Source of the DNA: Candidatus Latescibacterota bacterium
GTDB lineage: Bacteria > Latescibacterota > UBA2968
Reading direction: 5' to 3'
Length of the DNA: 64,000 bases
Assembly (NCBI GenBank): GCA_965204375.1
Contig: OZ241986.1
Span: forward strand, 2,944,001 to 3,008,000
Below, one piece after another: positions 35,826-63,434 of the stretch (position 1 is the first letter of the stretch; each line of letters opens with the position of its first letter). The notes under the pieces were generated by a model, which saw nothing but the letters and a program-made list of their open reading frames with translations, made no database searches and was not told where the DNA came from. The translations under genes and the position numbers were made by a program.

Positions 35826-35836
35826 GCGGGGAAAAC

Positions 35837-36133: not shown

Positions 36134-36336
36134 CGGGGTGGCGGGGGATACATTCACAACAGAGGCAGGGGCGAGGGCGGTCAGTTGGAAAGATAGTGAG
36201 CCTGAAGAGAAAGAATTTAATGACCGTGGAATTGGACGCGAAGGATAACGTATTGCACCTGTCTATACGCACAATTCACACATTAAGACGATGTGTATGA
36301 ATTCGGCACACCCCATATCGAATAGGAGAATGTCCG

Positions 36337-38007: not shown

Positions 38008-38033
38008 TTGCAGGCAGTGAGTGGGGCGAAAAT

Positions 38034-38265
38034 TGTCTGAATCAGGATTTTCAGAGCCTGCACTGGAGTGGTTCTATCCAGTGATGAGAGGATGAACAGG
38101 ATAAAGGCAGTGCTCTGAAACATGGCCTTCGCAAGTTCGAAGTGGGGTGCTTTTTGCGCGGCAAAAGAGGAAAGGTAAGATGGCGGAGGGATGGGATTTA
38201 GGACAGGTGGGTTGGTGGGGCTATCCTGCCTATCCTTACATCTAGCCCATCCTGATTTTTTGACA
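38034..38265. repeat. MITE-like element copy 2
   Basis: TGTCTGAATCAGGATTT...GGATGAACAGGATAAAGGCAGTG shared with copy 1; ends ATCCTGATTTTTTGACA; carries a 28-nt hairpin insert. Confidence 0.7.
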
Positions 38266-38266
38266 G

Positions 38267-39699: not shown

Positions 39700-39885
39700 G
39701 TAGCAGAAAAAGAACAGATAACCACAGGTTCTTGTGAAGGTGGAACTGCAAATGAAGGATGGGAGAGTAGCGTTCCCGAACCCGGCAAAAAAGGAGAATG
39801 GTTAATAGACTGTGACCGGAAACTTAAAGGATTTAAATTGACAATAGTAAGAGAAACACAAACAAGAATACAAAAGGGCAGATGA
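39700..39885 (+). pseudogene. Orphan 3' gene fragment starting at the IS256 end
   Basis: 61 open codons (VAEKEQITTGSCEGG...RIQKGR*) with no start, beginning exactly at the IS boundary. Confidence 0.4.
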
Positions 39886-39931
39886 TTGAGCTTGAAACAA
39901 CAGGTGAAAATAAAAGGAGGATCACAAATTG

Positions 39932-45198: not shown

Positions 45199-45336
45199 TT
45201 ATGAAAACAACGCAAATGGAAATTTTAGAAAAGGCAATTAGCCCTTGACGGCTTATGAGTTGAAATTGGGGCAAATTAGACACGACTAAATTAACAATAA
45301 GGGCAAGGTCAGGCAACGTTAAGACCTCGCCCTTGT

Positions 45337-45405
45337 TTACATGTCACCCGATTCGAGTTTCTTATCAATCTCCTGTTCAGCATTACCAATTTCATCGGAT
45401 GTCAC
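45337..45405 (-). CDS. Putative 22-aa acidic micropeptide
   Basis: AGGAGGTG RBS 7 nt before GTG; MTSDEIGNAEQEIDKKLESGDM*; followed by hairpin 45299-45334. Confidence 0.45.
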   Translation of the reverse strand: MTSDEIGNAEQEIDKKLESGDM

Positions 45406-45542
45406 AAGGCCTCACCTCCTTTTGAGTCATTATGGTAACTAATACCAATTACAAGAGTCTTAGAATGCTAATAAATATGGATTTATAGACAATAAATTAG
45501 TATATAGTTAATAAAAAGTTGCAAAAAGTCAAAGTAATTTTC

Positions 45543-45635
45543 TCGTTTTGCTGGCTTATAACCTGCGAAAAGGAAGGTAAGGGAACGATTAGCGGTCGAT
45601 CCCTTACCCAGACCAATCACCCGCCACCAAAACGA
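45543..45635 (+). ncRNA. Putative structured leader RNA (three-way junction) before the IS1595 transposase
   Basis: TCGTTTTG-c-TGGC pairs with GCCA-c-CAAAACGA; GGTAAGGGA pairs with TCCCTTACC; short CCT/AGG hairpin. Confidence 0.45.
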
Positions 45636-45652
45636 ATGAAAGGGTATAAGAA

Positions 45653-46546
45653 ATGATGGATATATTTGAAATGTTTAAGAGGTTGAAAAGTCAAGAGGAT
45701 TGTATAAAGTATCTGGAAGATATACGATTTAAAGAGCAAGCATATTGTCCGCATTGTAACGGAACAAAGGTTGCTCGAAAGCGAGAAAATGACGTTGTAG
45801 GTCGCTGGAATTGCTATGAGTGCGGGAGTAGTTTCAATGTAATGTCGGGAACTATATTTCATAGAACGCGATACCCTTTAATGATCTGGTTCATTGGGAT
45901 AGCTTTAATGTTGCATTCAAAGAGTAGCCTATCAAGTAATGAAATGGCGGAGCATCTTAAAATCTCGCAAAAGGGAGCGTATAGAATGCAAATGAAGATA
46001 CGCAAGGAATTTATGAGCGAAGAAAAATCAACGAAATTGAACGGAATACTTGAAGCTGATGAAACGTATCTTGACATTAAAATAGGCAAGCCAAATAAAC
46101 AGGGTCGCGGAGCCAATAAGCTCAAGATACTTGGGGTTGTTGAACGAGGCGGTCAGGTAATCACAAAAGTAGTTGACGATGTTAAAGGCAAGACTATTAG
46201 AAAGTTCATAAGGGAATCAATTAGACCTGAAGGGTCGGTATTGATAACAGATAATTTCAAGTCTTACAGTAAGATGTATAAAATAGTGAGGCACGAAGTA
46301 ATAACAAGAAAAGGTAAAGTGTTCACAAATGGGATTCATACGAATACGATAGAGGGCTTTTGGTTCCACCTGAAAAAGTCGCTTTATGGAACGCATCATC
46401 ATTATAGCGAGAATAGAGCAAAGATGTATCTGGCAGAAGTTTGCTATAAATACAATCACAGATTTTACAGTACTGAAAAGACATTCCATCGTTTCCTATG
46501 CCATAGTTTGAGAGCTTACGAATTTATACCCAGATGGGATGTATAA
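45653..46546 (+). CDS. IS1595-family transposase
   Basis: CPHC..CYEC zinc ribbon, GTIF, EADETY, TDNFKSY, HTNTIEGFW..LK, YLAE..YKYN. Confidence 0.94.
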   Translation: MMDIFEMFKRLKSQEDCIKYLEDIRFKEQAYCPHCNGTKVARKRENDVVGRWNCYECGSSFNVMSGTIFHRTRYPLMIWFIGIALMLHSKSSLSSNEMAEHLKISQKGAYRMQMKIRKEFMSEEKSTKLNGILEADETYLDIKIGKPNKQGRGANKLKILGVVERGGQVITKVVDDVKGKTIRKFIRESIRPEGSVLITDNFKSYSKMYKIVRHEVITRKGKVFTNGIHTNTIEGFWFHLKKSLYGTHHHYSENRAKMYLAEVCYKYNHRFYSTEKTFHRFLCHSLRAYEFIPRWDV

Positions 46547-46621
46547 ATAACTTACAAACGCAATGGATAAGCCCGTAATAATGAGCAGTTAAGTGTAACT
46601 TAAAGAAAGGAGTAAATTATG

Positions 46622-46650
46622 TTGTGACGTAAGTAGAAATCCCGTATATT
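46622..46650 (+). promoter_or_regulatory. Putative sigma70 promoter for the structured RNA
   Basis: TTGTGA-17 nt-TATATT; predicted +1 near 46657, the first base of the long stem. Confidence 0.4.
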
Positions 46651-46656
46651 TTAGCC

Positions 46657-46911
46657 GTCAACAGTTTTTGCAGAACCCGCTACGTCGGGTATCTGCTGAA
46701 TAAAACAGCCACGAGACAAGTTGAGTTAAGGGTAGCTCCCGTGACTCGACTGGCGAATAAGCAGAACATTCCGCGTTTCTATTCTGCGAGAACTGTTGAC
46801 AATGCCCGACTCCCATTTTACGGGTAGGGCAGAAAGTCAACGCGCAGTTATAGAAATGCGTTTTTATTTGTACAAAGTGATACGGAGTGATGGGTAAGAT
46901 CACCCCGTATC
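46657..46911 (+). ncRNA. Putative highly structured RNA / riboregulatory leader
   Basis: 19-bp stem 46657-46675/46782-46800 with G-U pairs on the + strand, several internal stems, an alternative helix and hairpin 46879-46911. Confidence 0.6.
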
Positions 46912-46954
46912 GAAACCCCTTCATCACAATCGAGTGTAGAAAGGATTTATCACA

Positions 46955-47518
46955 ATGTATCAGAATATACGTGAAGTTGCAAATGCTATTGATCAAGAGG
47001 TAATAACAGGTCAATACGCAATCGGGAATCTGCAAGAGATCAGAAAACAATTGAGAGGCTTGAGATGTCGAGCAGGGTCAACGATATTCAAATTCCCTCG
47101 TAATCAACCAGTTAGAGACTACGCCTATCATTGGGGCGGACGCAGGGAATGTCAATTCAATATCCAGTTCCACAACAAACTTGACGGAAACTATATTGAG
47201 TTTGGTCTTGCATTCTCGCTTGAAGATATGCGAGGATGCGATATAGTAGAAGAACTTGAACCAAGAATTTGCAGATTTAACGAGTTCACTAATGGCGCAA
47301 ACGGTGACTTCGGAAACTACCAACTTGCAGTAACATATCAGAACGGAGGATTTGAACCAAGAGACCGCGACCTAATCATCCCTGAAGAATGGGTAGAAGT
47401 AGGCAACTTTATACAGTTCTTCAATATGTATAAAGAACGCGCCAATCTCGCAGGAGTCCGCCACGTATTGAGCGAGTTTGATAGCCTGTTACCGTTGTAT
47501 GAATACACAATGCAATAA
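46955..47518 (+). CDS. Hypothetical passenger protein (187 aa)
   Basis: AAGGA RBS; motifs YAYHWGGRRECQFNI, FGLAFSLE, FDSLLPLYEY. Confidence 0.75.
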   Translation: MYQNIREVANAIDQEVITGQYAIGNLQEIRKQLRGLRCRAGSTIFKFPRNQPVRDYAYHWGGRRECQFNIQFHNKLDGNYIEFGLAFSLEDMRGCDIVEELEPRICRFNEFTNGANGDFGNYQLAVTYQNGGFEPRDRDLIIPEEWVEVGNFIQFFNMYKERANLAGVRHVLSEFDSLLPLYEYTMQ

Positions 47519-47790
47519 GTTACGCTAAAGAACGGTATTTCAAGCAGTTGGGATACCGTTCTGGCATTCTACTGTATAAAATTCCGCAATCAAGTCAAGC
47601 AAAATTAAGCAATAGGAGCAACCAAAATGGCAACTGCAATTGGAATCTTGCTTATCGTCTTTGCCTTTATAGTGTTAATCGTCACTATTCAAGGGATGAG
47701 AGACCCCAAATCGTACGGGAACAAAGATATGACGAGTTCCCAAATCTTGAAGACCAACTCAATAATAATTATTGTTCTGCTATCTGTAAG

Positions 47791-49189
47791 TGTTATGCTT
47801 CAGATAAAACTGGACTTTTGCGGATCTTTGATAAGCTATAAATTGGGCTCAGACAAAGGAGGAGTCCATGTCGAAGAAGCGTAAGCAATATACCCCTGAG
47901 GAGAAGGTGTCGATTTTGCGTCGTCATCTGTTAGATGGCGTACCCGTGTCAGATTTGTGCGATGCCCATGGGATTCACCCGACGATGTTCTACAAGTGGC
48001 AGAAGGTGTTTTTCGAGCAAGGTGCCTCAGCCTTTGCGCCAAAGCAGAGTGTGCACGAGAAACAGCAAGCCAAAAAGATTGCGGTCCTACAGGCCAAATT
48101 GACCACAAAGAACGAAGTGTTGTCAGAACTGATGGAAGAGCACATTTTTCTAAAAAAAAGTCTTGGGGAGACCTGAGTCCGCGCAAGGTATCGCGTGCCA
48201 TTCGCGATGCGGTGATTGATTTTGTCGTCCATTGGCACAAGCAAACTGGTATCTGCATCGGTCAGTTTTTATCCTTATTAGAGTTATCCAAAAGCACATA
48301 CTATGACTGGAAAGCCCGGTATGGTGTGCCCAATGTCTCTTATGCATCACTGCCCAAGACATCCTGGCTCTTAGACTGGGAGAAGCAAGCCATTATCACT
48401 TATGCCTTATCGCATCCCGACTTGGGGTATCGTCGTCTTTCGTATCAGATGATAGATGAAGATGTGGTCGCCGTTTCGCCCAGCAGCGTGTATCGCGTGC
48501 TCAAAAGGGCCGATTTGCTTGGTCGAACTTTAAAAGAGGTCTCAAAGAAGGGGACAGGATTTGACCAGCCAACAGGCGCACACCAGCATTGGCATGTGGA
48601 TGTATCCTATCTGAATATCTGCGGGACCTTCTACTACTTATGTGCCCTTTTAGATGGCTATAGTCGATACCTCGTCCATTTTGAGATCCGAGAAGCGATG
48701 CGAGAAGCAGATGTCGAGATCATTATTCAAAGAGGTAGAGAAAAGTTCCCGAAGGCTACACCGCGTATCATCTCGGATAACGGCCCGCAGTTTATCGCGC
48801 ACGCCTTCAAGTCCTTTATTAGACACTGCGGGATGACCCATGTGCGAACCTCGCCGTTTTATCCGCAATCCAATGGCAAGATCGAGCGGTGGCACCAGTC
48901 GCTCAAGCGCGAGTGCATTCGTCCCAAAACACCGACGAATTTGGAGGAGGCGCGAGAGGTCGTTGCCAGATTTGTCGCGCATTACAACCACAGGAGATAC
49001 CACGCCGGGATTGGGTATATCGCACCTGTTGATAAATTGTGTGGTCGAGCACCGATTATTGTTAAAGAACGAAAACGCAAGTTGGCGCAGGCAAAATGCC
49101 TGCGTGCCCAACTCAGAGCCGTCAAACCCGTTGCCTATTTGTAGCTTAACTATAACACGCAAAATTCCACTTTACTTTGAACCATTACA
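47791..49189 (+). mobile_element. IS3-family insertion sequence
   Basis: TG...CA ends, about 48-bp imperfect IRs, TAAG TSD (47787-47790 / 49190-49193). Confidence 0.92.
47868..49144 (+). CDS. IS3 transposase OrfA (47868-48176) / OrfB joined by -1 frameshift
   Basis: HTH OrfA; A8G slippery run at 48152-48160; OrfB WHVDVSY, SDNGPQF, PQSNGKIERWH..LK. Confidence 0.92.
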
Positions 49190-52105: not shown

Positions 52106-53002
52106 CTATACCTTCACCTTCAATGCACCCGGAACAACCTCAATCTTCGCGGGAATCTCACACATCGGTTCGCCATCCGCAAAAATCCACAGGGAATCAT
52201 CGGACTCAATCTGCAAAGTTCTCGTCTGCACAACGCGCACAGCAGAATGACCAATATGCACGCCGGAATACGCGCTCAAAAACATCCGCAAAACCGTCCA
52301 GCGCGAAACATCTGCCACAATACACACATCCAGCACCCCATCATCAACAATAGCATCAGGTGCAATTTTGATCCCACTCCCATAAAAAGGCGCATTCGCC
52401 GTTGCCGCCAGCAAAACACACCCTTCAAAAACGCCAAAATCTCCCCGCAGACGCACAAAAGAAGATCGATATCCAGATAGTGTTCGCAAAACTGTCAGCC
52501 CATAAGACACCGTTCCCCCCACCTCCAAAGCCCGCGTGAGAAAACCGGTCCCCTGATTCCGCATCCTTTGCGCCACCGCCGTATCGAAACCCAAACTTGC
52601 AACAGTCGCAAAAAATCGGTCACCAGCTTTCCCCAGATCAATCGCGCGATCCACCCCATGCACCAGCGTATTGACAACAGCCTTCACATCTCTGGACAAC
52701 CCCAATGCCCGCGCCAAATCATTCCCGCGACCACAGGGCACAACCCCCAAAACCGCATCTGAATTTGCGAGACCATTGACCACCTCATGCACTGTCCCAT
52801 CCCCCCCACACGCAGCAACCCGTCGCCCACCTCGCGCCAACACTTCCCGCGCTAACCGCTCGCAATCGCCCAGCGCCTCCGACACCATCAAATCGGCATT
52901 TACACCGCGCTCGCGCAATAAATCCGCAACCCGCTCACCCATGCGCCCTGCACGGCCACGCCCTGAAACCGGATTTGCAATAATTGTCCAGTGATTTGAC
53001 AT
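52106..53002 (-). CDS. YegS/DAGK-family lipid kinase
   Basis: NPVSG, GGDGTVHEVVNG, PCGRGNDLAR, YGSG, ADGE; start trimmed to MSNHW. Confidence 0.9.
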   Translation of the reverse strand: MSNHWTIIANPVSGRGRAGRMGERVADLLRERGVNADLMVSEALGDCERLAREVLARGGRRVAACGGDGTVHEVVNGLANSDAVLGVVPCGRGNDLARALGLSRDVKAVVNTLVHGVDRAIDLGKAGDRFFATVASLGFDTAVAQRMRNQGTGFLTRALEVGGTVSYGLTVLRTLSGYRSSFVRLRGDFGVFEGCVLLAATANAPFYGSGIKIAPDAIVDDGVLDVCIVADVSRWTVLRMFLSAYSGVHIGHSAVRVVQTRTLQIESDDSLWIFADGEPMCEIPAKIEVVPGALKVKV

Positions 53003-53072
53003 AAGATTAAAAAGAAAACTCACCTCGCAATGAGATGAGTGAAAGGTAAGTGAAATCGAATTTCTGAAGCAA

Positions 53073-53171
53073 CTACCTCGGTAACTTCCCCGGTAACTTC
53101 TCCGGTAATTTGAACTCAAGCGTCGTACCTTCGCCTTCTTGAATAAGAATTTCAAGGTCCGAAAATGTCAT
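53073..53171 (-). pseudogene. Collapsed AlbA_2/Schlafen-domain gene remnant
   Basis: MTFSDLEILIQEGEGTTLEFK, then out-of-frame 12-nt repeats encoding ITGEVTGEVTEV. Confidence 0.6.
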
Positions 53172-53180
53172 GCTCTCTCC

Positions 53181-54263
53181 TTAAATCCCGAACCTCTGCT
53201 TCAATCTTTGAATCCGATTAAAAGATTCGCAAATGCGATCTTCTTCAATAACGCCATCTGCTACCGCCTGTACAATGGCATTTTTTACATCGTACACCTG
53301 ATCAATATTGTATTCCCCAATCTGGTTGGCGAGCAGAATCATATCAACACCTGCTTTTACGGCTTCAACAACCGCCTCAGTCAACCCATACGCCTCGACA
53401 ATCGCCCCCATTTGCATATCATCGGAAATAACGACCCCATCAAAGCCCATCTCATATCGGAGAAGCTTCGTCACAATATCATGCGACAAAGTTGCCGGTC
53501 TTCCACTTTTATCGAGCTTCTGATTGACAATATGCGCCGTAAGAATCGGATCGTCATAGCCCCTCTGGATGAACTTTTGATACGGCAAAAGCTCTTTCGC
53601 GCGTCGGTATGTCTCCGTAACATCAGTAACACCCAGATGCGTATCGCCCGCCGCACTTCCGTGCCCGGGAAAGTGTTTCAGCGTCGGTATCATCTGCTGT
53701 TCTTGATGCGCCTTAATAAACGCATTGGCATGCGCTATCACATCCCCCGGAACATCGCTAAATGACCGTTCTATCGCGCCAATAGCCGGGCTTTTGGAAT
53801 CTATATTCACATCGACAACCGGAGCAAAATTCCAATTAATCCCCATCTCTTTCAATTCGCGCGCAAGGGCATCTGCCACTCTTTTTGTCTTATTCGGAGA
53901 CTGCCTGCCGAGTTCTTGAGCAGACGGCACAGAAATAGTAAAACCATACGCCTCTTTCAGCCGGTTGACATACCCACCTTCTGCGTCAACCGCAATAAAG
54001 TAGGGAGCTATACCCTGAAGCGCTGAGGTCAAAGCGCGAAGTTGACGCGGAGACGTAATATTCCGCACCATCTCACCTTTGCTCGACAAATCATAGTCAA
54101 AAAGCACAACCCCACCGGGTTGAATATCCCGCAGGAGCGCAGCAATATCCCCATCTAAAACATCGCCGCGAAAACCGATCATCAGCATCTGCCCCACGGC
54201 TTCCTCTAACGCGAGACAGTCCGCGCCCTCCCGAATCGAGATTTCATGATCATCGGGCGTCAC
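53181..54263 (-). CDS. GH3 beta-N-acetylhexosaminidase (NagZ-like)
   Basis: VDAEGG, NFAPVVD, KHFPGHGS..GDTH, SDDMQMGA; GTG start overlaps the SDR stop. Confidence 0.88.
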   Translation of the reverse strand: MTPDDHEISIREGADCLALEEAVGQMLMIGFRGDVLDGDIAALLRDIQPGGVVLFDYDLSSKGEMVRNITSPRQLRALTSALQGIAPYFIAVDAEGGYVNRLKEAYGFTISVPSAQELGRQSPNKTKRVADALARELKEMGINWNFAPVVDVNIDSKSPAIGAIERSFSDVPGDVIAHANAFIKAHQEQQMIPTLKHFPGHGSAAGDTHLGVTDVTETYRRAKELLPYQKFIQRGYDDPILTAHIVNQKLDKSGRPATLSHDIVTKLLRYEMGFDGVVISDDMQMGAIVEAYGLTEAVVEAVKAGVDMILLANQIGEYNIDQVYDVKNAIVQAVADGVIEEDRICESFNRIQRLKQRFGI

Positions 54264-55072
54264 ACCACATCCCCCAAACCCTGATCCCTCATCTTCCTCC
54301 TCACCAGCCACTCGATAATTTTAGGATGAATCAATTGCAGATAGGGCAATGCGCGGTGGTGCCAGGGAAGCACCAATTCGCGCTTCTGTTTTCGCATCGC
54401 TTTCAAAATTGCCACGCAACAATATTTAAGAGAAAGTGCCTCTTTGTTGTGCCGCTGTGAGGAATCGCCCAGTACTTCGCCATCCTTCCCAAAAGCGTGC
54501 CGCCTCAAATTTGTTCCCTGAAGCCAATGCGGCAAAACCGTCAACACATGCACATCTCCAACTTCCAGGCGCAGGGCGTTTAAAAAACCCAGCACCGCGT
54601 GCTTTGACGCGCCATATCCCGTGTGCAAAGGCACGCCAAACTTGCTCTGCAAAGATGCAATGGCCACAATCATACCCTTCGAAACTTTCAAATGTGGCAA
54701 TGCCGCATGCACGCAATAGACCAGACCGAGATAATTGGTCTCCATCAACTTGCGAAACACCTCCAAATCTTCTACCTCATCAAACCGCGCCCACATACTG
54801 ATCCCGGCATTGGCAATCAAATAATCGATGCGACCATAAGCAGCAACCGTCGCCTCAATCAATTGTTCGCAATCTTCGATCTTCGTAACATCCCCCACCA
54901 CTGTCACCACCTGTGCGCCCAAATCCCGACACTGCTCAGCCGTCTCGCCCAGCTTTTCCTCTCGCCGTGCAAATAATGTTAGGTGTGCGCCCTGTTTCGC
55001 CAATTCCAGAGCCAACGCAGCCCCAAGCCCCGAAGACGCGCCTGTAATAATCGCTACCTTATCCCTAAACAT
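54260..55072 (-). CDS. SDR oxidoreductase (DHRS7/DHRS7B-like)
   Basis: ITGASSGLG, ARR, ANAG, METNYLG, YGASKHA; start trimmed to MFRDK. Confidence 0.88.
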   Translation of the reverse strand: MFRDKVAIITGASSGLGAALALELAKQGAHLTLFARREEKLGETAEQCRDLGAQVVTVVGDVTKIEDCEQLIEATVAAYGRIDYLIANAGISMWARFDEVEDLEVFRKLMETNYLGLVYCVHAALPHLKVSKGMIVAIASLQSKFGVPLHTGYGASKHAVLGFLNALRLEVGDVHVLTVLPHWLQGTNLRRHAFGKDGEVLGDSSQRHNKEALSLKYCCVAILKAMRKQKRELVLPWHHRALPYLQLIHPKIIEWLVRRKMRDQGLGDVV

Positions 55073-55376
55073 CGCGCCACTCAAAATTGGTCCTTTCCAT
55101 TCTTTCAAGTGCCCGCTCAAAGCTGACGAGGCGGCGAATGAGACTGTTGTAGCGGGAATGTGTGTCTCCGGGATACATGGCACCAAGGGCCTTGTAGAGC
55201 GCGAGTTCCGGCTGGTCCGGCAACGCCACCTGGGGAATCTCCAAACCAGCAGCACGCAGACGTGTCGCACCAATAGCGACGAGCAAGGCTTCGACCGTCA
55301 TCTCACCGCGCTGCAACGCTTCAATGCCCGACATCACGAGATCTGCACCGGGCAGATTTTTTGGCACCCTATTCAT
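55065..55376 (-). CDS. Hypothetical protein (103 aa)
   Basis: LPGADLV..GI..L, ALLVAIG, PELALY, HSRYNSLIRRLVSFERAL; GGAGGAG RBS. Confidence 0.75.
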   Translation of the reverse strand: MNRVPKNLPGADLVMSGIEALQRGEMTVEALLVAIGATRLRAAGLEIPQVALPDQPELALYKALGAMYPGDTHSRYNSLIRRLVSFERALERMERTNFEWRDV

Positions 55377-55455
55377 TGCTCCTCCATCGCGTTCACCGCA
55401 TTCCGCACCTTCACGGTCGTTTCTCGCATGGTATCGGCGTTCCTCTCACTGTCAC

Positions 55456-57291
55456 TCAATCCGCAAACGCCCCATTGCCAATGGCAAAAATATTATTTGG
55501 ATCCATCGCCTTTTTCATTTGCCGCAACACTGCAATGCTATTTTCGCTTTGAATCTGCGGCAAAAATCCACTGCGGAGCTTGCCCACGCCGTGATGGTGT
55601 GACAAAGACCCGCCGTGGTCTAAAATCTCCTGTCGCAACTGGCGCTCAATCGCGTGATAAACGCCAACCGAATCCTCAAGCCCCTGCGCACAAAAACCCA
55701 TAGTAAAATAAATGCACACGCCCGTGTGATAGGTCTGCGTCACGCGATAAGCCAGAAAGGGCTTGCCCGGCACGCCGTATTCTTCACACAAAACAACCAA
55801 CTTCTTTTCCACCGCACCAATAACATCGTGAATATTAGTCCACGGCACAGAAGTTTCAAATGTCTCGCCCAAAATGTGAAACTGAGTGAAAAAATCGCGA
55901 ATATACGCAATCCCAAACGTCAACATATACCCTCGCTCGCCTCTGTGCGCCCCGCCCGAAATACCGCCGTATTTCTTCGCCAAACGGAAAATCGTCTTTG
56001 CCTGCTGCCGAACCTCGTCTTTTGTGCCCTCCATCACAATCGTACACGCCACCAACTGCTTTGGATCAAACCCCTTGATCTTAACCAAAAAAAATTGCTG
56101 AATATCCTGCTGCAGTTTCTTGAACCCTTTTGCCTCGGGCTTCAGCGCCTGCCCAAGTTGTAATTCCGTATTGTTCACCAGCCGAATACTCGCTGGAACT
56201 TGCCCCGTTGGCCGAAGTGCTTTTAAGTAACTTACACCTCGTTCAAATGACGGAAACACCAGCGAGCCAAACTCCTGTGCCTCGGGCTGTTTGTGGATCT
56301 TTATCGTCGCCCGGGTAATAATCCCCAAATTGCCCTCACTCCCAAACAAAAACGACCGGGGTTGCACACCTGTCGAATTGCGCGGCGTTGCATGGTGTGT
56401 CTCCACCTCCCCTGTTGGCGTCACAAGCGTGGCCTCTATCACAATATCCTCAATATTGCCATACCGATTCTTTTTCATACCGCTGGCATTGGTCGCAATC
56501 CATCCCCCCAGAGTTGAAAACTCCAGACTATCTGGATCGTGTCCCGACGTGTACCCCAACTCATTCAGCGCAATCTCCAATTGCTTACCCGAAATACCCG
56601 CCTGCACACACGCTTGAAAATTCTCTTCATCCACCTGCACAATGCGATTCATGCGACGCATATCCACCGACGCGACCATTCGCGTCTCCAAAGTCGGAAT
56701 TGCGAGCGCACCGCTCACATTCGTCCCGCCACCATAGGGCACCAGCACCACATTGTGTTCATTTGCAAGCTGAATAATAGCCTGAATATCTGTGTCTTCC
56801 TCCGGGAACAACACCACATCCACCAGGCGTTCGGGCGGCCGATGATACAAAATTTGATACACCTCATCCACACTCAACTGCCCGTGGCTATGCACCAGAC
56901 GCTCTGTGTCCTCTTGAGAAACCCCATCTTCATTGAGCGCATCGCGCACCGCCCTCAAAAATTCGTCATTTGCGACAGGCGCGGGCAAATCGCGATGCTC
57001 GACCTCTTGCCCCATATCTTCGGGACGGATCGGCACATCGAGCACCTCTTCGACAAAAGGCAAAAAATACGGCATCCGATAGCCACACAACGGATACCGC
57101 GTTCCCGTCACATGCACGGTCCTGTCATCGTCAAACTCAAACCGCGTATCCTCATACCCCCACTTGTGAGCAAACCGCTCGCCTTCTGCTGCTCCATCAG
57201 AAAAACGGCCTTTACTGGCAAAAGCGCGACGCCCTCGAACGAACAAAAATACCAGCGCCAGTAAAAATGCGACAACCATCAGTTCATTCAT
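55456..57291 (-). CDS. agpS: Alkyl-dihydroxyacetone-phosphate synthase (FAD-dependent), eukaryote-like
   Basis: HSHGQ, PYGGGT, GHDPDSLEFSTLGGWIATNASGMKKNRYGNIED, RGYMLTF.IAYIRD, ETFETSVPW, RVTQTY, GGSLSHHHGVGKLR. Confidence 0.92.
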   Translation of the reverse strand: MNELMVVAFLLALVFLFVRGRRAFASKGRFSDGAAEGERFAHKWGYEDTRFEFDDDRTVHVTGTRYPLCGYRMPYFLPFVEEVLDVPIRPEDMGQEVEHRDLPAPVANDEFLRAVRDALNEDGVSQEDTERLVHSHGQLSVDEVYQILYHRPPERLVDVVLFPEEDTDIQAIIQLANEHNVVLVPYGGGTNVSGALAIPTLETRMVASVDMRRMNRIVQVDEENFQACVQAGISGKQLEIALNELGYTSGHDPDSLEFSTLGGWIATNASGMKKNRYGNIEDIVIEATLVTPTGEVETHHATPRNSTGVQPRSFLFGSEGNLGIITRATIKIHKQPEAQEFGSLVFPSFERGVSYLKALRPTGQVPASIRLVNNTELQLGQALKPEAKGFKKLQQDIQQFFLVKIKGFDPKQLVACTIVMEGTKDEVRQQAKTIFRLAKKYGGISGGAHRGERGYMLTFGIAYIRDFFTQFHILGETFETSVPWTNIHDVIGAVEKKLVVLCEEYGVPGKPFLAYRVTQTYHTGVCIYFTMGFCAQGLEDSVGVYHAIERQLRQEILDHGGSLSHHHGVGKLRSGFLPQIQSENSIAVLRQMKKAMDPNNIFAIGNGAFAD

Positions 57292-57309
57292 TTCATACCT
57301 CGCAAAATG

Positions 57310-57453
57310 CGAATAGACGAATAGACGAATAGACGAACCCCGCCCAACCACCCAAAACCTCTGGATTGCGACTTAAAGCATGCCGCAATGACGATGGATG
57401 GGATTGATCGCTGATTTTTGACCACTGACCGTTGATTCGTTGATTCGTTGATT
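57310..57453. repeat. Inverted octamer arrays enclosing a REP-like palindrome
   Basis: (CGAATAGA)3 at 57310-57333, (CGTTGATT)3 at 57430-57453, REP-like unit at 57361-57392. Confidence 0.65.
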
Positions 57454-59393
57454 TAAGACTCTTCCGGATTCAACAACGTCGCAATATGCACCGCTTGAAA
57501 CAGCGCAGCAGCCTCGGACTGAATCCGCAGCGACCGTCTTTTGGGCAACAGGGTCGTCTCCCCCAGCATAGGCGGCGAGACCCACACATCGACCTGCCCC
57601 GGATTGATATTGATATTGCCCTTTGGACACTTGGGCCACAGCGCATGAAGCCCGCGGTACGCAATCGGCACAATCACCACATCCTGGGGCAACTGTGCAA
57701 ACACTCCGTGTTGAAGTGGAAATTGCTGAATCGCAAAAGCCGCGGTCGTCGCCATGGGATAAATAACGCCCGGTCGCTCTGTCAATGCCTGTGCCACGCG
57801 CTGTGTCGTATGGCCCGCAGCATGGGACCGCTCGAGCATCACATAGCCATCGACATTTTCCAGAATCTGATCAAAAACCTCAGACGTCATCCCAAACTGC
57901 GTGATCTGTTTCGATCCAATTTTAATACCCGAACGCGCCAGCCCCGTGCGCGCCAAAATCACACACGGTTCGGGTCTTTCCCATCCCATCGCATTCAAAA
58001 ATTCTCGAGACTGCAAAACCCTGTACAAAACGGGATGATCAAACAAACTCTGATGCGTTGGCAAAAAAATAAGACGCCGATCTTCCGCATCAGCTCCCAA
58101 ATCTCGTACAATAGCTTCAAAATGGGGATCGATATAAATATCGATGCGAATATCAAAAATATCCAGTGTGCGACGCCCCCAATCGAGCCAGGTGCGCCAT
58201 CCGGCTTCGCGACGACGAATGGGATCGGATTCTCTTTCCAACAATTTCTTTTTTTCTCGCCCCACCTTGAGTGAAGTCCCCATCCACCTCACAAAACGCA
58301 TCCCTCTCTGCAATTTCGAAAATTGCCCTCGACGCCCGACACTGGGATATTCCAAAAATCGCCCTCGCGCCGTATCTGCGAGCAAAGCGGGAATTTCTAC
58401 ACGCGAAATTTTTTGCCCAACGCGATCGATTTGCGCATTCACATCGCATATCAGCCTAACTGACAAATCAATCATATCCCGCGTTAAATAACTATATTCC
58501 TGCCCATACCAATACAGCCTGGGACGCAACCTGGTGGGATCTTCCTGATGCGCGTGCAAAAATTCAATCAACAGCGCCTTGATGTGCAACACATCATCAT
58601 CTATCCCAGCCAGATCCGCATCGTCGCGCAACTGCGCCAAAGCCACCTCTGCATCCACAATAACCTTCCACACCGACACGCCAAACCAGCCAAAATTCGT
58701 CAAATAATTATACCGCGTTGAGAGCAACCCCCCCGCGGCGATCAAATTGAGCGTGCGCTGTGCCACATCTTGCAACAAATCGCGCAAAGTGCCCTCAATC
58801 CGCTCGCTATCTCGTTCACAACTGTACTCCTCGGCCCAGTGTTCGTCCTCATCCGCCTCCACATTGTCGAGCGCCTCTGCAACGGCGCGGGCGTGCGACA
58901 TCGGCACCTGTGTAATATGCACCTGGGCCAATGCCTCTTCCACGGCTTCGGGCGCGTGCAACTCCGCCTGTGCCAGAGCCTTCAAATACAGGGATTGATA
59001 CAACCTCAAAAAGTCTTTCGCATCCCCGTGTCCGCGCTCAATAAATTGTCGTCTGAGTTGCAAATACATTCGGCTGCCCGTGTGATATTGCGGAAGCAAC
59101 GCCGCAAAAGGACGATACGCCTCGTCCAAACGATCATCGCGAACCTCCGGCAGACCTTGAAAAATCGCATCTACAAGCTGCACGCGAAATTGCAGTGCCT
59201 CCATATCCATCGCTCCGCTCTGACTTTTGGGCCAGACCACCGCATCTGCATCGAGGTCGTCAAAATAGCCATCGTGACGCACCGCTTCGAGCATAAGCTG
59301 AACCGATTGATCATAAATAGCCAACATCTGCTCCAGATCGTCGAGCAGCGCTTCGTGCAATGGGCGAGTATCCGATCTATCGCGTGAGGTCAT
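57453..59393 (-). CDS. Glycerolipid acyltransferase (HxxxxD) domain protein with a large unknown N-terminal region
   Basis: FLPTHQSLFDH, IYPMAT (block III-like), VIVPIAYRG. Confidence 0.7.
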   Translation of the reverse strand: MTSRDRSDTRPLHEALLDDLEQMLAIYDQSVQLMLEAVRHDGYFDDLDADAVVWPKSQSGAMDMEALQFRVQLVDAIFQGLPEVRDDRLDEAYRPFAALLPQYHTGSRMYLQLRRQFIERGHGDAKDFLRLYQSLYLKALAQAELHAPEAVEEALAQVHITQVPMSHARAVAEALDNVEADEDEHWAEEYSCERDSERIEGTLRDLLQDVAQRTLNLIAAGGLLSTRYNYLTNFGWFGVSVWKVIVDAEVALAQLRDDADLAGIDDDVLHIKALLIEFLHAHQEDPTRLRPRLYWYGQEYSYLTRDMIDLSVRLICDVNAQIDRVGQKISRVEIPALLADTARGRFLEYPSVGRRGQFSKLQRGMRFVRWMGTSLKVGREKKKLLERESDPIRRREAGWRTWLDWGRRTLDIFDIRIDIYIDPHFEAIVRDLGADAEDRRLIFLPTHQSLFDHPVLYRVLQSREFLNAMGWERPEPCVILARTGLARSGIKIGSKQITQFGMTSEVFDQILENVDGYVMLERSHAAGHTTQRVAQALTERPGVIYPMATTAAFAIQQFPLQHGVFAQLPQDVVIVPIAYRGLHALWPKCPKGNININPGQVDVWVSPPMLGETTLLPKRRSLRIQSEAAALFQAVHIATLLNPEES

Positions 59394-59402
59394 GAGAGAA
59401 AC

Positions 59403-61007
59403 CTAAGCACCTGTCTTGAGCACATGGCGTTGCAAGCCGGGAATATGCACCTCTTTTACATAAGAGGGCCAATCTATGCGCGAAACATCACAATTAAAAA
59501 TCTCTTTATCTTCTGCATCCATGCTGTCAAACAACCGATTCATATTGTCGTTTTGAAATACGCAATCCAGAGAAATATAAGAACCGTAAATATCGGTAAG
59601 CGACAGTGTATTTTCCAAAGTGGCATTCAAAATCGATAATTGGCGTTTCTGCTTTGAAACATCGACCAGCGGCACCAAATTCAGTGCCCGTTGCAAAATT
59701 TTGAGTGGCAACAAATACTTATAGCGCAACTTGCGACGAAATTGTGACAGTGTCGGATAGGTCCACGGCGTCACCACAATGGGTTTGCCATTGCGATCGC
59801 GCATTGGATTGTTCACAAAATACTCGTACACATATTGGACGACCTCACCTACCGTCACCGGATTCTTTGCACTTGTTGTCACATGATAAACCTTCAAATC
59901 GGCATTTTCACGAATGAAAGGCAAAACACCGATAATCACATTGATAATAATATCCACAGGAATAACGTCTAAAACCGCTTCTGGACGTGCGGGAAAATCC
60001 CTCAAACGCCCCTTGCCGTAGTGTGCAATAAGCGGGTCGGCCACTTTTAGCCCCTCCAGCCATCCCGGCTCTGGATCGGACAAACTGCTCTCAATAATAG
60101 AAGGACGCACAATCACAGTTGGCAAATCGTCCCGGGTCTTGGCAATCATCTGCTCGCCCATGGCCTTGGTAAAAGAATAACTGTCGTGCCAGCCCAACTC
60201 TCGCCCGCGCTTTATGCCGCGTGCCACCATCCGTTCTCGCACCCAGCGCAGGCGCAAAGCCTCCAACTGGTGTTCCCGCCGATGCGCTGTAACGCGCTTG
60301 CCCCGATCCTGCCGGTCCAGCAACCGCGTAAATTCCGCAAACCGCTCGGGACTCCGCGACGCCGCCTCTACTTCGCGGCTATACGCCAGAATATCTTCAA
60401 TTTCCGAATCCAGACTATAATCGGGCGCGCGACCATTTCCCATCTGTTGTGCCACAGTTTGATCGGGCACGGGCGCGTCTTCAGAAATGTTCCGCTTTTG
60501 CCGCCCATTGACATAAGCCGTTGAAACATGCACGAGCACAGCATCTCGACACGCCTTGGCAAATTCGACCACGCGTCTGGCCCCAAGTGTATTTTGCGTC
60601 AGAGCCGTATCCAGTGGCTCGTCAAAAACCACATTGGCTGCACTGTTAATCACAATATCGACTTCACGGGTCAACCGCGCATATGTCCCGGCATCCATGC
60701 CGAGGTGGTCTTGTGTCAAATCGCTCGGCACGGCAATGACTTTTTCGCGCATCACAGCATCAAAACGATCCCCGAGTTCTGCACGCAATCGCGCAAAGGC
60801 ACTGGATTGCAAAATCTCCTTTTGCAGCCGGTCTTCGGCACTAATGGTCTTGCCCCCTCCCCGCCTTTGGGGACGCACCATCAGATAAATGCGCCCAACA
60901 TCTGGCACATGGCAAAGGATTTTTTCCACCAATCCCTTGCCCAAAAAACCAGTTGCACCCGTAACAAAAAGAACCTTGTGGTTCAAAAATGGAATAACGA
61001 CACTCAT
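59403..61007 (-). CDS. Alcohol-forming fatty acyl-CoA reductase (NAD_binding_4 + Sterile domains)
   Basis: TGATGFLGK, NSAA, HVSTAYV, YSFTKAMGE, IVRPSII, EPGWLEG, DVIPVD, F.CD...IDW..Y....HIPGL. Confidence 0.92.
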   Translation of the reverse strand: MSVVIPFLNHKVLFVTGATGFLGKGLVEKILCHVPDVGRIYLMVRPQRRGGGKTISAEDRLQKEILQSSAFARLRAELGDRFDAVMREKVIAVPSDLTQDHLGMDAGTYARLTREVDIVINSAANVVFDEPLDTALTQNTLGARRVVEFAKACRDAVLVHVSTAYVNGRQKRNISEDAPVPDQTVAQQMGNGRAPDYSLDSEIEDILAYSREVEAASRSPERFAEFTRLLDRQDRGKRVTAHRREHQLEALRLRWVRERMVARGIKRGRELGWHDSYSFTKAMGEQMIAKTRDDLPTVIVRPSIIESSLSDPEPGWLEGLKVADPLIAHYGKGRLRDFPARPEAVLDVIPVDIIINVIIGVLPFIRENADLKVYHVTTSAKNPVTVGEVVQYVYEYFVNNPMRDRNGKPIVVTPWTYPTLSQFRRKLRYKYLLPLKILQRALNLVPLVDVSKQKRQLSILNATLENTLSLTDIYGSYISLDCVFQNDNMNRLFDSMDAEDKEIFNCDVSRIDWPSYVKEVHIPGLQRHVLKTGA

Positions 61008-61223
61008 AAAAAGACCCCGGCATACCAAAAAAATTAAAATGCAACAGCACTAAAAACCACCTTCCCAATTAAAGGCGTCCATTGGACTTGTGTCAACCCC
61101 TTTCTCGCGCAGTTCACAAGCGCAAATCCTTATCAAAAATGAGGTTGACAAAAAAATGATCAACTCCTATCTTGTCCATCTTCAAACCGATACAAGCCGT
61201 ATTTCTCACAGGGAATTTTATGC

Positions 61224-61622
61224 ATGGAACGCACCTTGCTCATCGTCAAACCCGACGCTGTTGCACAAAATGTAATCGGTGAAATCATTCGCCGACTCGA
61301 AGAAAAAAACTTTTGGATTGTAAACCTAAAAATGGTTTGTCTCACGCGCCAACAGGCCGCCGAGTTTTATGCAGTACATCGCCAACGGCCTTTTTACAAC
61401 GACTTGCTCGATTTTATGACCTCTGGCCCCTGTGTGCCCGTGGCACTCGAGCGAGACAATGCCGTTGCATTTTTGCGCGAGGCCATTGGCAGCACCAATC
61501 CCGAAGAAGCCGCAGAAGGCACCATTCGCAAAGACTTTGCAACCAATATTCAAAACAATGCCGTACACGCCTCAGATTCACTGGAAAACGCAGCCAAAGA
61601 AGTGGCTTTCTTTTTTGGGTAA
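61224..61622 (+). CDS. ndk: Nucleoside diphosphate kinase
   Basis: ERTLLIVKPD, GTIR, NAVHASDS. Confidence 0.96.
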   Translation: MERTLLIVKPDAVAQNVIGEIIRRLEEKNFWIVNLKMVCLTRQQAAEFYAVHRQRPFYNDLLDFMTSGPCVPVALERDNAVAFLREAIGSTNPEEAAEGTIRKDFATNIQNNAVHASDSLENAAKEVAFFFG

Positions 61623-61628
61623 AACCTT

Positions 61629-62141
61629 ATGAAAATCGACCTGAGAGATATACAGGAAGGCGAGACCGAATTTGCGTTTGAAGAAACGCCGACCGACCTG
61701 CACATTACCGAAGAAGACATCCAATTTGCAGGTGCCATCAACACCCGGCTCGTCGTGTACAAATACGGCGACTCGCTCTCGGCCAAAGGGCAAACCACCT
61801 GTCTGGTGCGCCCCGAATGCGCGCGGTGCCTGGAACCCATCGAATTTCCCATCGTCATCTCATACGCATTCGTTTTTCAAAAAGGTCGTCCCGACCAGAT
61901 GGACGATGACGATGATGAAACGCTGATCTGGCTCAATGAAGAACCCGGCGAAATAGATCTGGGCAATGACGTGAAAGACTATATTTTGCTCGAATTACCC
62001 ATGATTCCAACCTGTGCTGCATCGCCTTCTGGCCCTTGTGAACGCTATGAGCAAGACCCCCACGAATTGCTGGAATACGAGCGTGAAAAGAGCCACGACC
62101 CGCGTTGGGATGCTCTCCGCGCACTTAAAGAAAGCGAGTAG
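61629..62141 (+). CDS. yceD: DUF177/YceD family protein
   Basis: ECARCLEP, DPRWDALR; canonical position before rpmF. Confidence 0.85.
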   Translation: MKIDLRDIQEGETEFAFEETPTDLHITEEDIQFAGAINTRLVVYKYGDSLSAKGQTTCLVRPECARCLEPIEFPIVISYAFVFQKGRPDQMDDDDDETLIWLNEEPGEIDLGNDVKDYILLELPMIPTCAASPSGPCERYEQDPHELLEYEREKSHDPRWDALRALKESE

Positions 62142-62213
62142 CTGGCTCTATCACGCCTCAAGCGCGGTACACATTTCTAAATAAACGATGCATTAATCAA
62201 AAAGGAATACCTC

Positions 62214-62396
62214 ATGGCCAACCCCAAACGAAAAAGTTCAAATTCTCGCACCGGCAAACGCCGTGCCAATTGGAAGCTGCGTCAACCCACTTTTAACGCA
62301 TGCCCCAACTGTGGGCAGCCAAAAATACCCCATCGGATCTGTGGAAATTGCGGTTATTACAATGGGCGCGAAGTGGTTGAAATCGATGGCTTTTAG
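62214..62396 (+). CDS. rpmF: 50S ribosomal protein L32
   Basis: MANPKRK..CPNCG..PHRICGNCGYY. Confidence 0.97.
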   Translation: MANPKRKSSNSRTGKRRANWKLRQPTFNACPNCGQPKIPHRICGNCGYYNGREVVEIDGF

Positions 62397-62441
62397 TTTG
62401 GTCTAACGTCGCGCATACTTTTTTGAGGAGCAGAGTACATC

Positions 62442-63434
62442 ATGTATCCCCTTACAGCCACCATCACCGGGGTTGGGCACTATGTCCCAGAACAAAAGCT
62501 GACCAATACCGACCTCGAAAAAATGGTCGATACATCCGACGAGTGGATCACTTCCCGCACAGGTATTAAAGAACGCCGCATCCTCAACGAAGGGTTGGGC
62601 ACATCTTTTATGGCTCTAAAATCTCTGGAAGCCATTCTGCACAACAAAGGACTCGATGCCAGAGATATCGACTTGCTCATCGTCGCAACCATCACGCCCG
62701 ACATGGTATTTCCATCAACGGCCTGTCTGGTACAGGACCAAATTGGTGCCACAAATGCCTGGGCTTTTGATCTGGCGGCAGCCTGTAGCGGTTTTTTATA
62801 TGCTCTGATGGTGGGGGGGCAATTTATTGAAACGGGCGCACACAAACGCGTGGTCGTCATTGGAGCCGACAAAATGAGCAGCATTACAGACTACACCGAT
62901 CGCGACACCTGTGTGCTCTTTGGCGATGGCGCGGGCGCCGTTTTACTCGAGCCCGGCGAACCCGGTTTGGGACTTAAAGACTTTATCCTCTATTCTGATG
63001 GTAGCGGCGTAAAACATCTGCGACAACCCGCTGGCGGCAGTCTGCTTCCCGCCTCTCGTGAAACCGTTGATAAGAAAATGCACTATATTTATCAAGATGG
63101 TCGCGAAGTTTTCAAATTTGCAGTTCCCAAGATGGCCGAAGTTTCCGCTCAAATCCTCGAACGCAACGGCCTTGTCGGCAAAGACATCGCGCTTTTTGTG
63201 CCGCATCAGGCCAACAAGCGCATTATCGACGCATGTGTTAAACGCACAGATATACCCAAAGACCGCGTTGTAGTCAATATCGACCGCTATGCCAACACCT
63301 CGGCTGCCACCATTCCCATTGGCCTGTCTGAAGCAGTCGAACAGGGCCGTCTCAGCCGCGGTGACAATGTGCTGCTCGCCAGTGCCGGTGCGGGATATAC
63401 CTGGGGCAGCACCCTGCTAACCTGGGCTTATTAA
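62442..63434 (+). CDS. fabH: Beta-ketoacyl-ACP synthase III
   Basis: DTSDEWI, AACSGF, LFGDGAGA, PHQAN, NTS. Confidence 0.96.
   Translation: MYPLTATITGVGHYVPEQKLTNTDLEKMVDTSDEWITSRTGIKERRILNEGLGTSFMALKSLEAILHNKGLDARDIDLLIVATITPDMVFPSTACLVQDQIGATNAWAFDLAAACSGFLYALMVGGQFIETGAHKRVVVIGADKMSSITDYTDRDTCVLFGDGAGAVLLEPGEPGLGLKDFILYSDGSGVKHLRQPAGGSLLPASRETVDKKMHYIYQDGREVFKFAVPKMAEVSAQILERNGLVGKDIALFVPHQANKRIIDACVKRTDIPKDRVVVNIDRYANTSAATIPIGLSEAVEQGRLSRGDNVLLASAGAGYTWGSTLLTWAY

Follow-up and report, generated by a model that had tools for sequence, protein, structure and literature searches.

The window analysed here is a stretch of 64,000 nucleotides from a Candidatus Latescibacterota genome (G000:C1:2944001-3008000), and the source genome, G000, is a single 6.34-Mb contig that is 96% complete with 5.5% contamination. 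Six minus-strand open reading frames (ORFs) of the same orientation occupy 52106-61028 of the window. They encode a fatty acyl-CoA/acyl carrier protein (ACP) reductase (FAR), an HxxxxD protein of 646 amino acids that we call AT646, an alkyl-dihydroxyacetone phosphate (alkyl-DHAP) synthase (AGPS), a classical short-chain dehydrogenase/reductase (SDR), a GH3/NagZ-like hydrolase and a YegS/BmrU-type lipid kinase (DAGK). The six-gene co-oriented cluster that an earlier, sequence-only reading had claimed at 52106-61007 was confirmed. On balance, we lean to the view that this cluster provides an AGPS-type, peroxisome-like route to 1-O-alkyl-glycerol-3-phosphate. Along this route, FAR would reduce acyl-CoA or acyl-ACP to a fatty alcohol, and AT646 would acylate DHAP to 1-acyl-DHAP. 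A membrane-anchored AGPS would exchange the acyl group for the FAR-made alcohol, creating the ether bond, and the SDR would reduce alkyl-DHAP, and probably acyl-DHAP too, to the sn-glycerol-3-phosphate form, to which the single PlsC-like enzyme of the genome would add the sn-2 chain. AGPS needs both acyl-DHAP and a fatty alcohol; the alcohol would come from FAR, and AT646 is the only candidate for the supply of acyl-DHAP.

AGPS, FAR and the SDR in a conserved gene order

The AGPS gene (ORF 55456-57351, minus strand) probably starts at the ATG at 57291 and then encodes 611 amino acids. Likely start codons of this gene and of the FAR, SDR and kinase genes were judged from the onset of the relatives' alignments and from homologue lengths, and the AGPS homologues of 606-616 amino acids begin at the Met of ATG 57291. 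The translation matched PF01565 (FAD_binding_4, 131 bits) and PF02913 (FAD-oxidase_C, 127 bits). It aligned with guinea-pig AGPS (4bby) at 512 bits over residues 63-623 (561 residues) and with the Dictyostelium enzyme (2uuu) at 304 bits, whereas the next-best matches, D-lactate/glycolate oxidases, scored 87 bits or less. An oxidase identity, the alternative that the sequence-only reading had raised against its own assignment, was rejected on this difference. All the AGPS motifs quoted in that reading were found in the translation.

Residues R370, R465, Y528 and H565-567 (611-residue numbering) align to mutated or named positions of AGPS structures. Mutant PDB chains mark two of the sites, with CIYF changed into CIFF (4bca) and SIRL into SIHL (4bc7), and the window AGPS has Tyr and Arg there; from these chains we take the positions to be Tyr578 and Arg419, a numbering that is in part our assumption. 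The second Arg (in YIRD) and the HHH loop, which aligns to H615-617, are kept as well. R370, R465 and Y528 also align to R349, R444 and Y505 of the Dictyostelium chain, which equal the published R352, R447 and Y508 given an offset of +3. These three Dictyostelium residues are called catalytically important in PMC3509576, and H616 and H617 are named as AGPS active-site residues in PMC13019191. All six catalytic residues were invariant in 20/20 bacterial homologues. Bacterial homologues at 60-97% identity stand far closer to the window enzyme than animal AGPS does. The score of 512 bits and the retention of every catalytic residue bear out the identification as AGPS: the flavoenzyme, of the VAO/PCMH type, appears clearly orthologous to mammalian AGPS, and exchange activity is predicted for it. 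Its hydrophobic N-terminal segment (LMVVAFLLALVFLFV, Kyte-Doolittle 2.16) suggests a helix that serves as a membrane anchor. Apart from this enzyme, a second and divergent type of AGPS, 46-47% identical to that of the window, was seen at G038:C96, G094:C428 and G151:C4 (G-codes other than G000 denote the further genomes compared, L-codes loci and f-codes families within the phylum). The divergent AGPS of G038 sits in a cluster and is followed by a different SDR (27% identical).

FAR is encoded at 59403-61028 on the minus strand; the ORF starts with TTG at 61028, and the likely start is the ATG at 61007, giving 534 amino acids. It matched PF07993 at 227 bits and the Sterile domain PF03015 at 58 bits. 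The NAD_binding_4 domain and the C-terminal Sterile domain are both present, as in a eukaryote-type fatty acyl-CoA reductase. Among solved structures it comes nearest to 7eoz, 'Fatty acyl-CoA reductase', at 298 bits. Of its longer relatives, the closest are ElbD-like proteins of 1400 amino acids (FAR-adenylation-ACP-acyltransferase), and it is 42-51% identical to their reductase domain. The gene is single-copy in G000, and the translation carries GATGFLG and YSFTK, which we take to be the GxxGxxG and YxxxK motifs. The SDR (ORF 54260-55273, minus strand; likely ATG 55072, 270 amino acids) matched PF00106 at 163 bits and NF004825 at 297 bits, and its TGASSGLG and YGASK presumably represent TGxxxGxG and YxxxK. 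Clavaldehyde dehydrogenase and 11beta-HSD1 are its nearest solved structures. We consider it a candidate alkyl/acyl-DHAP reductase, a link that rests on its place beside AGPS and on the joint loss of the two genes, both described below.

Gene order was compared in 17 related Latescibacterota loci from species-representative genomes, in which AGPS is 68-97% identical to the window AGPS. The order FAR-AT646-AGPS-SDR was found in 16/17 of them, beyond what chance would give, so the earlier worry that the genes might not be co-conserved does not hold. The exception, L017, has AGPS-SDR alone, with 3.5 kb of upstream sequence present. FAR-to-AT646 gaps in these loci were 16-118 nt. The SDR gene directly follows AGPS in 17/17 related loci and in 7/9 AGPS loci of more distant genomes, and the four-gene order recurs in G071 (family f1), G042 (f2), G038 (f3, with the divergent AGPS) and G034 (f14). 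AT646 and AGPS are spread over four families, and the AT646 tree largely tracks the families. Members of family f4 are arranged otherwise: AGPS and SDR stand together, away from AT646, in 4/5 genomes examined (the remaining one, G102, showed no SDR next to AGPS), and FAR is separate or lies within an ElbD-like protein. FAR-AT646 and AGPS-SDR are therefore separable in distant genomes and can be regarded as two modules.

Distribution was counted over 168 genomes of the phylum, 132 in the class of the window and 36 outside it. Clusters lacking AGPS (L053 in G008, L056 in G037) have the layout (ACS)-FAR-AT646-HAD-ZnADH-LarA_N-like-YegS kinase, and in G031 (L081) an ElbD fusion (FAR-A-ACP-acyltransferase) takes the place of ACS, FAR and AT646 ahead of HAD-ADH-LarN-kinase. 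In the seven AT646-positive genomes without AGPS, FAR-AT646 is followed by a HAD phosphatase and a Zn-dependent alcohol dehydrogenase (Zn-ADH). The Zn-ADH orthologue was present in exactly 8/168 genomes, namely the seven AGPS-less genomes that have AT646 and G031, and in 0/123 genomes that have both AT646 and AGPS; it is mutually exclusive with AGPS-SDR. No SDR orthologue was found in 5/5 AGPS-less genomes tested, and AGPS and the SDR were thus lost together. A reductase, SDR or Zn-ADH, always accompanies the system, which would fit a keto intermediate.

AT646, a candidate acyltransferase

The gene for AT646 (the ACYLTRANSFERASE) lies at 57453-59393 on the minus strand. The protein had no Pfam or NCBIfam match over threshold; its PF01553 score was 12.3 bits, with the cut-off at 23. 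Searches against PDB sequences, by single-sequence phmmer and by profile, gave chance matches only. Across the AT646 family, PF01553 is the weak recurrent top match (11/30 and 7/10 members), always in the same C-terminal place and with scores of at most 15.1 bits where shown. We found 182 relatives at E <= 0.001 among 7999 scored candidates. Among the matches listed, 0/120 relatives had a precomputed Pfam domain and the named ones were called 'hypothetical protein', with one exception, P0038, which JGI names '1-acyl-sn-glycerol-3-phosphate acyltransferase'. The family has 51 representatives among 1.84 billion proteins. Judged by these searches, the AT646 relatives form a narrow, isolated and very divergent family, distinct from recognisable GNPAT.

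An AlphaFold2 model of AT646 (pLDDT 84.3, pTM 0.88) contained two domains. The C-terminal domain (residues 356-646, 57453-58328 on the minus strand) is modelled with a fold of the glycerol-3-phosphate acyltransferase (GPAT)/PlsC type. The best Foldseek match of the model was PlsC of T. maritima (5kym_A; E 2.1e-5, TM 0.67 by target length, 272 columns), followed by squash GPAT (1k30), human GPAT1 (8e4y), 1iuq, an algal GPAT (8ia1) and PatA (5oce); just two matches had E <= 0.001. Aligned by hhalign with the acyltransferase domain of ElbD, the C-terminal part reached 67% probability (E 5e-5), against 3.3% or less for the FAR and adenylation controls and 18.8% in the untrimmed comparison. All 30 of 30 ESM Atlas neighbours were PF01553 clusters (best score 0.94). 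The HxxxxD motif reads HQSLFD at residues 447-452, with the codon of His447 at 58053-58055; His447 was found in 30/30 sequences, followed at position 452 by D in 23 of them and by E in 7, which makes an H(x4)D/E motif. AT646 further has a YPxGTT block that falls in the FPEGTR register, and a VPhxxRG block. Four lines, namely Pfam, hhalign, ESM and fold, agree that residues ~356-646 are probably an acyltransferase of the GPAT/LPLAT type.

Compared with the solved GPAT/LPLATs (PlsC 5kym, squash GPAT 1k30/1iuq, human GPAT1 8e4y, PatA 5oce), AT646 shares the fold of this part but differs in its identity of 9-16%, in a Pfam score half of the threshold, in having other residues in place of Glu and Arg within the FPEGTR block, and in its large extra N-terminal domain. 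That domain (residues 1-355, 58329-59393 on the minus strand) is almost all-helical in the model, with long helices at 64-119, 203-255 and 298-325. Pfam, PDB sequences and ESM Atlas (best 0.79) gave no family lead for it, and hhalign against the FAR, adenylation and acyltransferase domains gave 0.2% or less. A complex prediction for AGPS 41-611 with AT646 356-646 returned a score of 0.00 and a mark of 0.32, and nothing was drawn from it. As for the acyltransferase that the sequence-only reading had placed in the cluster, the acyltransferase fold and the invariant His are there, but the protein belongs to a separate divergent family and is not a recognisable GNPAT. The case for DHAP as the acceptor of AT646 is circumstantial: its gene adjoins those of AGPS and SDR, GpsA is missing, and there is no other sn-1 candidate.

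Absent initiation genes and the weighing of explanations

AT646 was found in 130/132 genomes of the class and 2/36 outside it (132/168 in total), and FAR, one copy each, in 128/132 and 3/36 (131/168); in families f5-7 and f9-12, none of the 29 genomes had FAR. The canonical genes for the initiation of glycerolipid synthesis have a complementary distribution. PlsY was found in 0/132 class genomes and 29/36 outside, PlsX (over cut-off) in 1/132 and 33/36, and GpsA in 0/132 and 29/36. PF02504, PF02660 and PF07479 (PlsX, PlsY and GpsA) had no match in G000, whereas controls matched in 8-10/14 genomes, and tblastn of PlsX and PlsY from two genomes of the phylum against the closed 6.34-Mb G000 gave a best E of 0.097. 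No long PF01553 protein of the PlsB type was found in G000 either. Its LPLAT-type proteins are two, AT646 and one PlsC-like gene after cmk (a 223-aa frame), and each of 21 genomes of the genus has exactly one PF01553 gene. PlsX, PlsY and GpsA are also missing from two lineages that do not belong to the class: G008 (99% complete) has FAR-AT646, and G031 has the ElbD-type fusion.

The gap left by plsX can be seen beside the cluster. An ndk-yceD-rpmF-fabH block (61224-63434, plus strand, identified by Pfam matches; rpmF at 62214-62396) lies divergently upstream of the six genes, and plsX is cleanly missing between rpmF and fabH. In the relatives G010 and G034 the block keeps this order and includes plsX (ndk/yceD-plsX-fabH), and loci of families f1 and f2 have, like the window, the plsX-less block flanking the cluster. 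Two side observations concern these genes. The sole PlsX over cut-off in the class (G145:C8:68072-69016) is on a separate small contig, its genome has 7% contamination, and it may have arisen by wrong binning; in PlsY-bearing relatives plsY and gpsA adjoin, for example on contig C80 of G034.

Since PlsX, PlsY and GpsA are absent lineage-wide, a point not made in the sequence-only reading, the cluster would be more than an accessory pathway. Without GpsA there would be no de novo synthesis of glycerol-3-phosphate (G3P), and a route that begins with DHAP would therefore explain how the class makes glycerolipids. Because the lineage lacks PlsX, PlsY, GpsA and PlsB, AT646 and the DHAP route are probably its main or only entry into glycerolipid synthesis. 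We advance a wider proposal only tentatively, and rather doubt it as a whole: that the entire class (132 genomes) and the two outside lineages replaced GpsA, PlsX/PlsY and PlsB by a FAR plus AT646/ElbD DHAP pathway, in which all glycerolipids start as acyl- or alkyl-DHAP, ether lipids are the default, and the downstream AGPS-SDR and HAD-Zn-ADH modules are interchangeable.

Several observations weigh against the proposed route or its reach. AT646 falls under the PF01553 threshold, and its closest fold is that of PlsC, an sn-2 acyltransferase, rather than that of a GPAT. In family f4, AT646 stands alone, unlinked from AGPS, and seven genomes have AT646 but neither AGPS nor SDR, with the HAD-Zn-ADH module standing instead. 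G000 has a glycerol kinase, GlpK (659 bits), by which G3P is obtainable from glycerol. PF01553 matches occur in frames of 810-981 amino acids in a few class genomes (G042, G066, G094, G037, G039, G040); these frames could be PlsB-like or Aas-like, which would weaken the claim of no other sn-1 enzyme outside the genus of the window. One genome, G034, combines the two gene sets, although the contig that bears its cluster is 7 kb long and its AT646 falls within the f1/f2 sequences. The complementary presence/absence pattern amounts to roughly three lineages and not to many independent events, and the contigs from RNA libraries that lie over the cluster do not prove transcription.

Some of these points would suit an AT646 that is a housekeeping G3P acyltransferase, replacing PlsB/PlsY and maybe using G3P and DHAP alike, as the yeast enzymes Gat1 and Gat2 do. 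Its clustering would then reflect lipid genes lying beside fabH. The near-universal presence of AT646 in the class, even where AGPS is unlinked or absent, fits this explanation, as do its GPAT-like fold, the presence of GlpK and the adjoining ndk-yceD-rpmF-fabH block. However, the class would have no de novo G3P without GpsA, AGPS would be left without a source of acyl-DHAP because the sole other LPLAT is PlsC-like, and the accompanying SDR or Zn-ADH would be superfluous for a pure G3P route. We therefore hold this explanation to be unlikely, while taking it more seriously than the others. If AT646 acted later in the pathway, in the sn-2 acylation of 1-alkyl-G3P (an AGPAT) or in making wax esters from the FAR alcohol, another enzyme would have to serve sn-1. 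Neither the source of acyl-DHAP nor any sn-1 acylation would then be accounted for in this closed genome, which has no PlsB, PlsX or PlsY, and a canonical PlsC-like gene is already there. The lysophosphatidic acid acyltransferase PlsC as the best fold match, the name given to P0038 by one source, and the persistence of the FAR-AT646 pair without AGPS nevertheless speak for such a later step, as does the fact that AT646 of G037 takes the place of the acyltransferase domain of the G031 ElbD protein, a domain annotated AGPAT. We judge it improbable.

It is very improbable, in our estimate, that the genes do not form one pathway, with the AGPS homologue having another FAD-dependent function and the FAR alcohols or aldehydes serving other uses. 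In favour of this, a sponge-holobiont preprint (10.64898/2026.06.23.733905) reports that no short-chain plasmalogens were seen. The full-length likeness to solved AGPS with its distance from the oxidases, the catalytic residues that are all kept, the order maintained in 16/17 loci, and the pairing of AGPS and SDR in 17/17 loci and their loss together argue otherwise. To a recent transfer from a eukaryotic host, or contamination by one, we give almost no credence. The eukaryote-type FAR and the high score to animal AGPS could suggest it, but the cluster lies within a single bacterial contig at a GC of 0.49-0.52, similar to the remainder of the window, its bacterial homologues, at 60-97% identity, are far closer than the animal enzyme, and AT646 and AGPS occur in four families whose branching the AT646 tree follows. 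Host contamination was rejected on these grounds. For the AGPS-type route, then, the part of the sequence-only reading that named a 1-O-alkylglycerol pathway of FAR, acyltransferase, AGPS and SDR stands in its gene identities and co-conservation, and we regard its pathway assignment as largely correct; the GNPAT-type acyltransferase does not stand.

Known systems and the surroundings of the cluster

Textbook accounts of bacterial phospholipid synthesis begin with the acylation of G3P by PlsB or PlsX/PlsY. A class without PlsB, PlsX/PlsY and GpsA that carries FAR and an unrecognised acyltransferase would, if true, be a clear exception, and AT646 is a named candidate for the missing bacterial DHAP acyltransferase. 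Surveys for GNPAT by sequence miss the AT646 family, which bears on counts of 'complete' ether-lipid pathways and on arguments about the origin of the eukaryotic pathway. Latescibacterota are common in sponges and marine sediments and are therefore plausible sources of monoalkyl glycerol ethers that are used as biomarkers or credited to hosts.

The operon MXAN_1676-1674 of M. xanthus is reported to encode AGPS, a FAR-GNPAT fusion and an NAD-dependent epimerase-family protein (PMC13012113 / 10.1101/2025.10.10.681575), and a contribution of its AGPS to ether lipids has been shown genetically (PMC13012113). Like it, the window cluster unites AGPS and FAR with genes for an acyltransferase and an NAD(P)-dependent reductase. 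It differs in having FAR and the acyltransferase on separate genes, in a reductase of the classical SDR type and not of the epimerase family, and in an acyltransferase from another, Pfam-negative family with a helical N-terminal domain of 355 residues. The window also has a linked YegS kinase, and its lineage lacks PlsX, PlsY and GpsA. As an AGPS operon, the cluster is thus of a type already known from M. xanthus (PMC13012113), and its earlier description as a candidate for an undescribed system did not survive in that form. The statement that bacterial AGPS is mainly myxobacterial is outdated as well, since Agps homologues are reported in 67/92 Black Sea Latescibacterota metagenome-assembled genomes (MAGs; PMC11868695) and also in sponge Latescibacterota MAGs (10.64898/2026.06.23.733905). 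According to a PNAS study, 73 bacterial genomes, 61 from Myxococcota, contain the full set of four eukaryote-type enzymes.

The elb clusters are described from M. xanthus, with elb-like clusters in sponge Poribacteria and Acidobacteriota and DAG-kinase neighbours (10.64898/2026.06.23.733905). Besides the likeness of the window FAR to the ElbD reductase domain, AT646 stands where ElbD has its acyltransferase domain when ACS-FAR-AT646-HAD-ADH-LarN-kinase of G037 is set against ElbD-HAD-ADH-LarN-kinase of G031. Unlike these clusters, the window lacks adenylation and ACP domains as well as HAD and Zn-ADH, and the ether bond, made in the elb system by an unknown ElbD mechanism, is assigned in the window to AGPS. 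The 'standalone elbD hits' reported in Latescibacterota (10.64898/2026.06.23.733905) are probably these FAR genes.

The proposed route has the same four chemical steps as the mammalian peroxisomal pathway of FAR1/2, GNPAT, AGPS and DHRS7B/DHRS7 (PMC13012113, PMC5146282, PMC13200781). FAR has the same two-domain make-up, AGPS appears clearly orthologous, and the reductase is likewise an SDR, whose nearest solved relatives include 11beta-HSD1, an enzyme placed near the DHRS7 subfamily (PMC13200781). Acyl-DHAP reduction can also feed ester lipids in mammals (PMC13200781). AT646, however, is no GNPAT homologue detectable by sequence, the window AGPS has a hydrophobic N-terminal helix where the mammalian enzyme has a peroxisomal targeting signal, and the window genes are clustered. 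PF10520 (PEDS1/CarF) had no match in G000, but 0/14 control genomes matched either, and the same holds for PF03007 (WS/DGAT), which matched neither in the genome nor in any control. Our literature searches turned up no account of the AT646 family, of the Latescibacterota operon or of the loss of PlsX, PlsY and GpsA there, although the supplements of two key papers may list these loci. What looks new is the AT646 family, together with the replacement, across the lineage, of the canonical genes for initiation; AGPS operons of this kind are already known.

Two further genes complete the cluster. The GH3/NagZ-like hydrolase (53181-54311, minus strand) matched PF00933 at 225 bits and NF003740 at 190 bits, below the cut-off of 207 for the latter. 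It is present in 13/17 close loci and absent from the more distant L015, L016, L017 and L019 and from other families. The gene, a genus-level insert confined to the 13 closest loci, is probably outside the pathway and was rejected as a member. The kinase (ORF 52106-53155, minus strand; likely ATG 53002, 298 amino acids) matched TIGR00147 at 167 bits (cut-off 118.65), PF00781 (DAGK_cat) at 108 bits and PF19279 (YegS_C) at 123 bits. It adjoins the cluster in 14/17 loci and is also found where AGPS is missing, beside FAR-AT646 in G008 and G037 and beside ElbD in G031. The YegS kinase is thus a recurrent neighbour across families and may have a role in the pathway; the salvage of alkylglycerols that the sequence-only reading suggested for it would be a hypothetical one.

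An ABC ATPase gene and three transposase genes lie on the downstream side of the cluster. No Rfam family and no tRNA were found in the window, and promoter and terminator scan scores were near background. Two intergenic segments differ between strains. Between AT646 and AGPS (region 57304-57454) lies a short repeated element whose core, 57310-57357, falls inside the GTG-extended AGPS ORF and matched at about 60 other places of the genome. The 8-mer CGAATAGA is repeated in tandem 3.5 times at 57310-57337, and CGTTGATT is repeated 3 times at 57430-57453. The fold of the repeat was no better than that of shuffles (z -1.67), and related strains are without 57304-57454, as seen from a contig joint. 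Between AGPS and the SDR, the genome has the only copy of a 368-nt insertion (55088-55455) that related strains lack: contigs from runs X3 and X4 join 55087 to 55456. In 7/17 related loci AGPS and SDR are 22-23 nt apart, and other relatives have spacers of 660-1575 nt there.

The read evidence consists of contigs from RNA libraries of two studies, labelled coral and sponge metagenomes, and it speaks for presence, not for transcription, strand or operon structure; bins without contig cover carry no meaning. Contigs of run X1 covered all 30 bins of the cluster, in pieces that showed 2-4 differences in every 500-1100 nt. In each of the runs X3 and X4, one 3.6-kb contig extended across FAR and AT646 of a strain about 7% divergent. 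Contigs piled up on the 57304-57454 repeat, where the summed depth was 215-2042 compared with about 20-100 nearby.

Other features of the window were noted in passing. Eukaryote-like repeat proteins are encoded at 32310-43360, namely an LRR plus FGE-sulfatase protein (1171 aa), an LDL-receptor class B/DUF5050 protein (556 aa) and a WD40 protein (1143 aa); such proteins are often reported for sponge symbionts. The three transposase/integrase genes (DDE_Tnp_1_4, IS1595-type, rve) lie at 43563-49144, just downstream of the cluster, in a low-GC stretch (0.41-0.45). The GC skew is strongly negative to about 32 kb, positive to about 50 kb and negative over the cluster, and it tracks the coding strand of the genes.

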